Below, piece after piece: positions 20,571 through 21,583 of a stretch of DNA of 29,052 nt. Every line of letters starts with the position of its first letter. Positions within the stretch are counted from its first letter, which is position 1. A model generated the notes under the pieces. It had not been told where the DNA came from. It made no database searches and was given only the letters and a program-made list of their open reading frames with translations. The translations under genes and the position numbers were made by a program. The DNA is from a virus. Taxonomy: Duplodnaviria; Heunggongvirae; Uroviricota; Caudoviricetes. The stretch lies in the IMG/VR virus record IMGVR_UViG_2778261515_000007; one strand, given 5' to 3'.

Positions 20571-21398
20571 TTATTTAACCTGGATAAATGGTGTACTGGC
20601 GCCGCTGGTCATGTATTGCGGCAGTGTGCCGTTCCATTTATTGATGGCTTCCAGCTCCATAACACCGGGGTTCTGGCGCAGAGCTTCACCGCGTAAACGA
20701 ATAGCATCGGCTTCAGCCTGGGCTTTTGTGCGAATCGCATCAGCCTGTCCGGCAGCTTCCGCGCGCAACATGTTGGCTTCCGCTTCGCGCTGTTTAACTT
20801 CCTGCTCGCGCTGCAGTGTTTTCTGGTTCGCCGTGACTTTGGCATTAATGCTGTCGATAACGGTTGGCGGGTACTCCGGCTTACCCACATATGAGAGGCT
20901 CATTACCTGAATACCGATGGGCGTCATTTCTGCCTGAATGTCTTTAAGAGCTGCATCCAGCAGTTCAGACTTGCCGCCGTCGATAAATTTGTCGGTGGTC
21001 ATTTTGCTGGCCAGTCGATTGAGTGCGTCGGCGATCTTTTGACGCAGGTCGGTGTCGGTAATGTCATCCACGCCTTTGCGGTAGGTCTGAAACACCGTGG
21101 TAACTTTGGATGGGTCAACTTTGTAGGCCACGCCGATGTGATAGCCGATGGTTGTACCGTCACTCATCTGGAAACTGAACGGTTCATCGTAGGTCTTCAT
21201 TTGTTTGAAGGTCGGGAAGATGTAAACTTCAGTATTCCAGCCGGTCCAGTAGCGGCCAACGCCAACCACTTCACCGACGCCTTTGTCGTCGCCCAGTTTA
21301 TTTACCTTGATGCCAACATTACCTGGTTCAACGCGATCGCAACCGACAAGGCCAATGGTCGGAAGAACAATGGCTAAAGCAAAAATAACTTTTTTCAT
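20571..21398 (-). CDS. SPFH/band-7 (stomatin/prohibitin/HflC-like) lipoprotein
   Basis: Lipoprotein signal peptide with lipobox LVGC, SPFH-type core, and C-terminal Ala/Glu/Arg/Gln-rich coiled coil (QKTLQREQEVKQREAEANMLRAEAAGQADAIRTKAQAEADAIRLRGEA). Its ATG overlaps the upstream gene's TGA (ATGA). Confidence 0.75.
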   Translation of the reverse strand: MKKVIFALAIVLPTIGLVGCDRVEPGNVGIKVNKLGDDKGVGEVVGVGRYWTGWNTEVYIFPTFKQMKTYDEPFSFQMSDGTTIGYHIGVAYKVDPSKVTTVFQTYRKGVDDITDTDLRQKIADALNRLASKMTTDKFIDGGKSELLDAALKDIQAEMTPIGIQVMSLSYVGKPEYPPTVIDSINAKVTANQKTLQREQEVKQREAEANMLRAEAAGQADAIRTKAQAEADAIRLRGEALRQNPGVMELEAINKWNGTLPQYMTSGASTPFIQVK

Positions 21399-21583
21399 CT
21401 TTTACCCTTAGTGAAAGAAAGACCCTTGTAAATGGCATAAATGCAGGGCGGGGTCAGAAACGCCAGTGCAAAGCCGGAAATGACTGCTACCGTATCCTTC
21501 ATGGATATAAGGAACGGGACGAGTAGTCCGTAAATGCATGCGATAATTGCCAGTAAAATTACTATTCTGAAATACAATCTCAT
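21395..21583 (-). CDS. Small integral membrane protein (62 aa, two predicted TM helices), translationally coupled to the SPFH gene
   Basis: Hydrophobic stretches IVILLAIIACIYGLLVPFLI and AVISGFALAFLTPPCIYAI. Stop overlaps the SPFH start codon. Confidence 0.55.
   Translation of the reverse strand: MRLYFRIVILLAIIACIYGLLVPFLISMKDTVAVISGFALAFLTPPCIYAIYKGLSFTKGKR

Follow-up and report, generated by a model that had tools for sequence, protein, structure and literature searches.

The stretch of DNA analyzed here, referred to as the window, comprises 29,052 nucleotides and corresponds to IMG/VR record IMGVR_UViG_2778261515_000007, a virus of the class Caudoviricetes whose source is a phiP27-like lambdoid prophage of E. 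coli. The minus strand of the window carries a pair of small genes. The first encodes a protein of 62 amino acids with two transmembrane (TM) helices (positions 21395..21583), and the second encodes a lipoprotein of 275 amino acids with an SPFH/Band-7 domain (20571..21398). Both were identified from their open reading frames (ORFs) and matches to protein families; the 62-residue protein is a homolog of N4 gp19 and P88 gp11, and the SPFH protein is a homolog of phiP27 L05 and N4 gp20. As proposed in an initial annotation made from the letters of the window alone, the ATG start codon of the SPFH gene (21398-21396) overlaps the TGA stop codon of the upstream gene (21397-21395), forming an ATGA sequence at 21395..21398 on the minus strand that suggests translational coupling. 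A Shine-Dalgarno sequence, AAGGG, is located at 21405-21409 within the 62-codon gene, 7 nt upstream of the SPFH start. The overlap, or a very short gap in its place, is likewise found in P88, P1-like phages, N4, phi1026b and one Salmonella prophage. Chance does not explain the pair, which is found again in hundreds of unrelated phages and genomes.

The SPFH protein begins with a signal peptide (MKKVIFALAIVLPTIGLVGC|D; 21339..21398, minus strand) that ends in the lipobox LVGC at residues 17-20, in agreement with the lipobox pattern [LVI][ASTVI][GAS]C. At least 90% of the sequences in each of two alignments, of 97 and 102 sequences, retain the cysteine at position 20, and the aspartate that follows it is present at the +2 position in 98 of 103 close enterobacterial homologs. 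In E. coli, an aspartate at +2 is a signal for retention in the inner membrane. Judged by these residues, the protein is predicted to be lipid-modified at Cys20 and to be held in the inner membrane by the aspartate. A handful of family members have a plain N-terminal TM anchor in place of the lipobox.

The mature part of the protein is matched by the Pfam family Band_7 (PF01145) over residues 22-208 (20775..21335, minus strand) with an E-value of 8e-31 and a score of 107.8 bits against a cut-off of 23.6, and the protein as a whole by PHROG 200 (E = 5.5e-114). An AlphaFold2 model of the monomer, built on 102 sequences with a mean predicted local distance difference test (pLDDT) score of 83.8, displays the beta/alpha domains of the SPFH fold within the Pfam envelope, followed by a single helix of 65 residues, a short helix and a tail of low confidence. 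The long helix (residues 178-242; 20673..20867, minus strand) is modeled with a pLDDT of approximately 90 and aligns with the coiled-coil region of HflK and prohibitin-2, which is the wall element of SPFH cages. The pLDDT falls to 65-61 over residues 241-260 and to less than 50 from residue 262. This C-terminal segment contains the motif KW[ND]GxLP...PF (residues 254-271; 20586..20639, minus strand), in which W255 and G257 do not vary across the family and P260 is at least 90% conserved, suggesting that it is likely to be a cap or closure segment.

A Foldseek search against the PDB, one of the checks that the initial annotation had called for, yielded full-length matches to chains of prohibitin, HflK/C, erlin, stomatin, flotillin and QmcA, with 250-300 aligned columns for the 275-residue query, E-values of 1e-13 to 1e-8 and 13-18% identity. 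Model and fold search together reveal the architecture of the cage-forming SPFH proteins, consisting of an alpha/beta domain, a long coiled-coil helix and a C-terminal segment. The description of the product as an SPFH lipoprotein with an LVGC lipobox and an HflK/C-like helical tail is thus confirmed. In phage records the protein is labeled variously as a lipoprotein, SPFH protein, serine protease, transposase or peptidyl-tRNA hydrolase; the last three labels find no backing in Pfam, NCBIfam, PHROGs or the fold search.

One explanation for such a gene in a prophage is that it is a host copy of qmcA/ybbJ or hflK/hflC that is carried passively and has no phage function. The shared superfamily is in agreement with this idea. 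However, the best sequence-level match in the PDB, HflK, reaches only E = 1.3e-3, the scores against the NCBIfam models for HflK and HflC (TIGR01933, TIGR01932, NF008181 and NF008259) are 17.6-24.7 bits, as compared to cut-offs of 134-660 bits, and QmcA (8Z5G) gave no sequence-level match at E <= 1. The only other NCBIfam match is a weaker one to FloT. HflK and HflC are two paralogous SPFH subunits, whereas the window has a single SPFH gene with a lipobox instead of the TM anchor. The family is also separate in its own right, with 225 relatives at E <= 1e-30 in an exhaustive search of 1.84 billion cluster representatives, and it is conserved in 383 phage records. These tests refute the passive host copy, to which we assign a negligible probability, in line with the initial annotation, which had not taken the gene for an ordinary host copy.

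The partner protein matches PHROG 1130 (E = 1.5e-23). Its two hydrophobic spans cover approximately residues 4-26 and 32-52, and positive charges are found at both ends. An alignment of 30 such modules revealed a family motif, P-x-[LM]-[IV]-S-x-x-[DS]-[T], in the turn between the helices, which in the window reads P-F-L-I-S-M-K-D-T (21491..21517, minus strand). Cellular SPFH proteins are often encoded with an NfeD-type membrane protein, and the initial annotation had implied a partner of this type. That suggestion failed: neither an NfeD (PF01957) nor an OB domain was found in the 62-residue protein, which is too short for an OB fold and for which the only Pfam match is a sub-threshold hit to DUF6320.

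The association of the two genes was examined with a profile of the two-TM module, which was run against 21,130 ORF segments from 179 loci at E < 1e-3. Each of the 166 matches shared its strand with an SPFH gene; 163 were either fused to it or located no more than 200 nt upstream, three were located 200-1500 nt upstream, and none were found elsewhere. The loci were searched with smaller alignments, as the one of 97 sequences was too diverse for this purpose. In a census of 80 genomes, one per species, the partner was adjacent upstream in 64, fused in four, displaced upstream in two, downstream in none and not detected in ten, one of which is cut off upstream and hence not assessable. The corresponding numbers for 80 diverse IMG/VR viral contigs were 69 adjacent upstream, two fused, three displaced upstream, three downstream and three not detected. 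Thus, a partner is present in 70 of the 80 species-level genomes and in 77 of the 80 viral contigs, which answers in the affirmative the question of whether the two genes co-occur. Small two-TM ORFs that overlap the start of the SPFH gene were observed in P88 (gp11/gp12), P1-like phages (where the ORF is unannotated) and N4 (gp19/gp20), and a two-TM ORF is likewise located upstream in the SSU5-like phage-plasmid Cyrano, the temperate phage phi1026b and a Salmonella prophage. Approximately 790 nt separate the two genes in one Shigella flexneri genome (L099) and one E. coli genome (L100), at about 3220-4000 of these loci; the gap that was inspected, in L100, is an IS1 insertion with InsA/InsB on the opposite strand.

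The two genes are also joined in nature. Approximately 18 of the best 150 relatives have an N-terminal extension, which reads as the two-TM module, a basic linker and a third TM helix, leading to the lipobox cysteine and the SPFH domain in a single chain. The AlphaFold2 model of one such fusion displays three helices and an SPFH domain that begins at the cysteine. A canonical lipobox is retained after the third helix in the fused homologs P0160-P0391 (for example at Cys87 in P0376). It is possible that LspA cuts at this internal lipobox, which would produce a three-TM fragment and a lipidated SPFH protein. The two proteins appear to constitute one functional unit, because the module profile matches only ORFs beside or fused to an SPFH gene and because natural fusions exist.

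The fused proteins also provide information about the orientation in the membrane. Across 23 of them, lysine plus arginine outnumber aspartate plus glutamate by 28:2 at the N-terminus and by 90:31 in the linker between the second and third TM helices, whereas the ratio in the turn is 17:23. These charge counts predict that the turn and the SPFH domain are outside the cytoplasm and that both flanks of the hairpin are inside. Signal peptide, lipobox, aspartate at +2 and charge distribution all point in the same direction, and the predicted product is an SPFH protein anchored in the inner membrane and facing the periplasm, accompanied by a hairpin subunit. HflK/C are oriented in this way, in contrast to QmcA and YqiK. 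For structure modeling, an alignment combining the 62-residue proteins with the fused proteins was discarded, since the small ones were mis-aligned in it.

The module was compared with known SPFH systems. It resembles the HflK/HflC-FtsH complex of E. coli (PDB 7WI3, 7VHP and 9CZ2) in its SPFH1/2 domain, long helix and C-terminal closure segment, in its full-length fold match and in the predicted orientation toward the periplasm on the inner membrane. It differs by an identity of only about 15-18%, by a single SPFH gene in place of the K/C heteromer, and by an anchor consisting of a lipid and a separate or fused two-TM hairpin, whereas HflK and HflC each have one N-terminal TM helix. The SPFH-NfeD operons (QmcA-YbbJ, PDB 8Z5G; YqiK-YqiJ) similarly combine an SPFH gene with a small membrane partner, and the fold match to QmcA has an E-value of 4e-8; in contrast to them, the partner here is a hairpin only and the SPFH domain is predicted to be periplasmic rather than cytoplasmic. 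The copies in N4 (gp19/gp20), phiP27 (L05, 98.9% identical to the SPFH protein of the window), P88 (gp11/gp12), SSU5 and Y. pestis pMT1 are true homologs, alike in both the pair and the overlap. We conclude that the module, catalogued before as PHROG 200 and PHROG 1130, is an architectural variant that is new to the SPFH family. A functional study of any family member was not found in the literature, in which only genome papers describing its role as unclear were identified (PMC8540360, PMC13239085), and the family is absent from the main text and the 49 supplementary files of the genome-wide CRISPRi-ART phage knock-down study.

A tblastn search identified the relatives of the SPFH gene mentioned above, in 383 of 50,697 phage records. 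The strictly virulent carriers are N4 and other Schitoviridae, PVP-SE1 and rV5-like phages, the FelixO1-like phage phiEa104, Bruynoghevirus and phiCbK, and jumbo and Lak phages and one crAss-like virus were grouped with them. The temperate carriers include phiP27, Stx phages, P2-like and P1-like phages, SSU5-like phage-plasmids, Y. pestis pMT1 and phi1026b. In the phage loci that were inspected, the SPFH gene was always located among early or replication genes, such as beside the RNAPII genes in N4 and between the genes for single-stranded DNA-binding protein and DNA polymerase in an epsilon15-like prophage; the same early setting was observed in the window, P88, P1-like phages, the SSU5-like Cyrano, PVP-SE1 and phage contigs. 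Bacterial chromosomes carry the pair as well. It is found beside the sdh operon in five species of Leptospira, at a conserved chromosomal position, at two syntenic chromosomal loci in many species of Dyella, and as a stand-alone two-gene unit in Luteibacter and in Xanthomonadaceae. Since the pair is found at conserved chromosomal sites in addition to its wide spread in phages, the module is an old cellular design that phages have adopted many times. The module is therefore not confined to prophages, the setting in which the initial annotation had read it.

Among 5,426 complete E. coli genomes, 725 contain the cassette, at 438 places on chromosomes and 390 places on plasmids. A comparison of the copies in lambdoid, P2-like and P1-like elements (20604-21350 of the window against loci L003 and L004) showed that the mature SPFH proteins are 96-97% identical, as compared to 42% for the signal peptide and 23-33% for the two-TM partner. 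The similarity at the DNA level ends at the signal-peptide junction. The SPFH body is exchanged, or evolves, as a module separate from the membrane part. In two viral contigs, the pair adjoins genes of the counter-defence type: genes for Gad2, NADAR and PRPP synthetase/NAPRTase in contig L263 (4385-5823 and 8961-12037) and a Tad2-like gene in contig L096 (8213-8473).

The segment of the window that contains the pair (20400-21800, 1.4 kb) is 100% identical to porcine enterotoxigenic E. coli (ETEC) chromosomes, 95.7% identical to phiP27 and approximately 93% identical to Stx2 phages. In agreement with the initial annotation, the gene order places the pair in a leftward operon between the immunity region and the xis-int end of a lambdoid prophage. 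A gene for a cI/LexA-like repressor (23643-24335) is followed downstream by a terminator (23602-23620) and, on the minus strand, by a pL-like promoter at 23547-23575, for which a promoter scan gave TTGACA-17-TATTAT with 11 of 12 matches. The first gene after this promoter (23087-23506, minus strand) encodes a helix-turn-helix "CII-like regulator" (PHROG 4836, E = 8e-51), a position that is unusual for such a regulator. Further to the left are several unknown genes, the pair, genes for DUF5406 and DUF4222 proteins, an excisionase-sized ORF and a tyrosine integrase (18390-19589); the last two together span 18390..19726. No sigma-70-like promoter of its own was found for the pair when the coding strand upstream was scanned, and the pL-like promoter is most likely to drive the leftward early operon that includes it. 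Because the pair is located in a pL-type early-left operon, it would be made after infection or induction, which corresponds to early lytic expression rather than expression in the lysogen.

Several smaller elements surround the pair. A GC-rich hairpin directly past the SPFH stop codon (20545..20563, minus strand; fold -17.1 kcal/mol, z = -2.4) lacks a U-tract and is possibly an RNA stabilizer or a weak terminator. After the gene for a 212-residue protein there is a weak hairpin with a U6 tract (-4.9 kcal/mol, z = -0.9). Neither of the hairpins that flank the pair is convincing as a terminator. An unannotated ORF of 35 codons with a single TM helix (MKSNRELSRVKLLLILATVLTLTEIIILFIALSVS; 21607..21714, minus strand) is located 23 nt upstream of the 62-codon gene. 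Its in-register reading is free of internal stop codons in 41 of 49 homologous regions, and the changes are conservative only; one of these 41 opens with ATA/ATT (isoleucine) and not ATG. No family match was obtained for it in the Pfam and PHROG searches. It may represent a third small membrane protein of the cassette, with uncertain membership.

The wider window contains further features. A gene for an AIDA-type autotransporter adhesin of 1,567 amino acids (13367-18070, plus strand) is located immediately outside the prophage integrase. Further to the left, a second integrase with Arm-DNA-bind_3 and Phage_integrase domains (8901-10217, minus strand) suggests an adjacent island. No tRNA gene was found within the window. 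In the immunity and early-right region, a gene of the BssS family of biofilm regulators (24782-25105, minus strand) is located between cro-like and Rha-like genes.

The presence of a CII-like gene just after the pL-like promoter is in favor of the proposal that the module acts on FtsH. According to this proposal, the periplasmic cage mimics HflK/C and captures or displaces host FtsH, altering the turnover of CII-like regulators in temperate phages and of sigma32, LpxC, SecY or phage proteins in others. It is consistent with the orientation and overall fold of the SPFH protein, with HflK as its best sequence-level match and with the HflK/HflC models as the main NCBIfam matches. The FtsH inhibitor CIII of lambda is likewise encoded in the pL operon. 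However, the likeness to HflK/C is remote and no greater than that to prohibitin, erlin or stomatin, the cut-offs of the HflK/HflC equivalog models are missed by more than 100 bits, and the family has neither a K/C pair nor the corresponding anchor. The module is also common in virulent phages, which make no lysogeny decision, and is found at the bacteria's own conserved chromosomal sites. We therefore consider an FtsH-directed mimic unlikely.

The distribution of the pair weighs similarly on the idea that it is an anti-phage defense, expressed constitutively in the lysogen to exclude other phages or to abort their infection, which was the main proposal of the initial annotation. The pair behaves as an accessory mobile cassette, with a nearly invariant SPFH body and a divergent partner in the lambdoid, P2-like and P1-like copies and a presence on both chromosomes and plasmids of E. 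coli, and positions such as this one typically hold membrane-based exclusion genes. A prophage "HflK/C-like" protein of P. multocida, possibly related to the family, is detectable in the lysogen (PMC9872710). On the other hand, none of seven operon proteins matched PADLOC-DB v2.0.0 at E <= 0.1, in accordance with the initial annotation, in which no named defense system was recognized, and there is no effector domain. No promoter of its own was detected for the pair, which is located inside the repressor-controlled early operon, and the module is found in strictly virulent phages and at core-like chromosomal loci. A lysogen-expressed defense is thus quite improbable. Because virulent phages and chromosomal loci carry the module, both the CII/FtsH role in the lysis-lysogeny decision and prophage defense are weakened, and neither can be the general function, although either may still apply in this particular prophage; the initial annotation is supported in part, being right about the anatomy and too narrow about the functions.

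N4-like phages provide a separate point of comparison. In N4 (L086) and Moo19 (L265), the gene for gp18, a P22 gp17-like protein labeled "superinfection exclusion", is always located just upstream of the pair. G7C (L264) is without the whole gp18-gp20 block of N4 and has a T4-type Imm gene elsewhere. N4 displays lysis inhibition, and G7C is reported to be without it (PMC12642591). This agrees with a role in lysis timing, in which the holin-sized partner and the cage would delay or tune holin triggering by stabilizing the energized inner membrane, as in lysis inhibition of the N4 type, although the comparison is limited to two phages. The partner proteins, of 62-78 amino acids, do have a class II holin-like topology with two TM helices and a basic, charged C-terminus. 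However, the 62-residue protein gave no matches to holin families in Pfam or PHROG, and the gene is not located in a lysis cassette but in an early operon, and 147 of 160 loci show it linked to an SPFH gene; among the inspected loci, the pair was never found in a lysis cassette. More than 60 rapid-lysis mutants of N4 have been mapped to gp61, gp63, vRNAP and DTR, and no gp19 or gp20 allele was reported (PMC12642591). Finally, the family has cellular homologs. Thus, we give lysis timing a low probability.

The P. multocida protein mentioned above, PM0222, also serves as a precedent for a role in lysogenic conversion, in which the lipoprotein would change the envelope of the host or stimulate Toll-like receptor (TLR) 2. 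PM0222 is an SPFH "HflK/C-like" protein of 25-35 kDa, similar in size to the protein studied here, that is encoded by a lambda-like prophage and found in outer membrane vesicles; full virulence requires it, and it is reported to act as a TLR1/2 agonist (PMC9872710). The source prophage is seen in ETEC and Shiga toxin-producing E. coli (STEC) strains, which fits a virulence factor. The aspartate at +2 and the fused forms nevertheless favor retention in the inner membrane over surface exposure, in contrast to the location of PM0222, and the module is carried by virulent phages of environmental bacteria. A surface or virulence factor is therefore very unlikely.

The reading that we favor, if only tentatively, is that the two proteins are halves of a single inner-membrane machine, a cage and a hairpin, that controls the inner membrane early in infection. 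The pair is widespread in phages that infect Gram-negative bacteria. To our knowledge, all full-length SPFH proteins with solved structures assemble into large rings or cages on membranes, and for this reason the lipoprotein would be expected to build a large assembly of this kind, similar to HflK/C, at the periplasmic side of the inner membrane. Rings of periplasm-facing SPFH proteins around inner-membrane complexes are known from HflK/C-FtsH (PMC12048511) and from FliL, which has an SPFH-like periplasmic domain on the inner membrane and surrounds the MotAB stators (PMC8794807). Unlike the pair, FliL has a single TM anchor, belongs to the flagellar system and is without a long cage-forming helix or cap.

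In the favored scheme, the 62-residue protein would be a helical hairpin with both ends in the cytoplasm and its conserved turn at the periplasmic surface. The 275-residue protein would be exported, lipidated at Cys20 and retained in the inner membrane via the aspartate at +2, so that the SPFH domain, the long helix and the C-terminal segment would be located in the periplasm, where W255, G257 and P260 would probably close the cage. The partner may form a transmembrane palisade at a ratio of 1:1, since natural fusions join both proteins in one chain. Produced from the pL-type operon once infection or induction has begun, the cage would close off an area of the inner membrane or surround an inner-membrane complex. 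Because virulent and temperate phages alike make the module early and it has no enzyme domain, early control of the inner membrane is the use that we prefer, by blocking superinfecting DNA, resealing the membrane or keeping it energized; this biological role is speculative. Other small, early phage proteins located at the inner membrane or facing the periplasm, such as T4 Imm and Sp, HK97 gp15 and P22 SieA, have no sequence or fold relation to the pair. In T4, superinfection-exclusion proteins at the membrane and in the periplasm intercept secondary infections (PMC12642591).

Several observations weigh against this interpretation. The gene pair, its domains and fold, the conserved linkage, the fusions and the distribution are shown directly, whereas lipidation, retention in the inner membrane, the oligomeric cage, the 1:1 complex and early expression are all steps that we infer, and the timing of expression is read from the position in the operon alone. 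A cage cannot be seen in models of a monomer. In some relatives the residue at +2 is glutamate, serine or threonine, and the E. coli rule does not tell how these proteins are sorted. Approximately 10% of the loci have no detectable partner, and one gene intervenes between the two in PVP-SE1. The vertically inherited chromosomal copies show that the basic function is cellular and not anti-phage, and nothing ties the family to a specific client or to DNA entry. An alternation of the pair with T4-type Imm in N4-like phages was considered and rejected: Enquatrovirus and N4 have only the pair, and Gamaleyavirus and G7C have only Imm, whereas Moo19 has both.

A more specific form of the favored reading, which we regard as doubtful, is that the pair is a kind of phage membrane device not recognized before, in which a periplasmic cage similar to HflK/C has a split transmembrane palisade and is built early in infection to seal or fence the inner membrane. 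In N4-type phages, and in many others, such a device could fill the place of a missing system for superinfection exclusion or membrane protection, with the hypervariable two-TM subunit setting the specificity and the fused precursors possibly being cut at the internal lipobox. The superinfection-exclusion system of N4 is stated to be uncharacterized (PMC12642591), and gp19/gp20 therefore provide a direct test case.

SPFH cages, including those of HflK/C, prohibitin, stomatin and flotillin, are a current topic in structural biology, and their clients are mostly unknown. The family described here has a different build, with a lipid anchor, a separable two-TM subunit and a predicted periplasmic orientation. 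Its carriers include the model phage N4, Stx phages, P1-like and SSU5-like phage-plasmids and Y. pestis pMT1, and because only two genes are involved and the phages are genetically tractable, the function can be tested directly. A functional result would explain a very common annotation as "hypothetical", "lipoprotein" or "serine protease" protein, and could reveal a new route by which phages control the inner membrane of their hosts.

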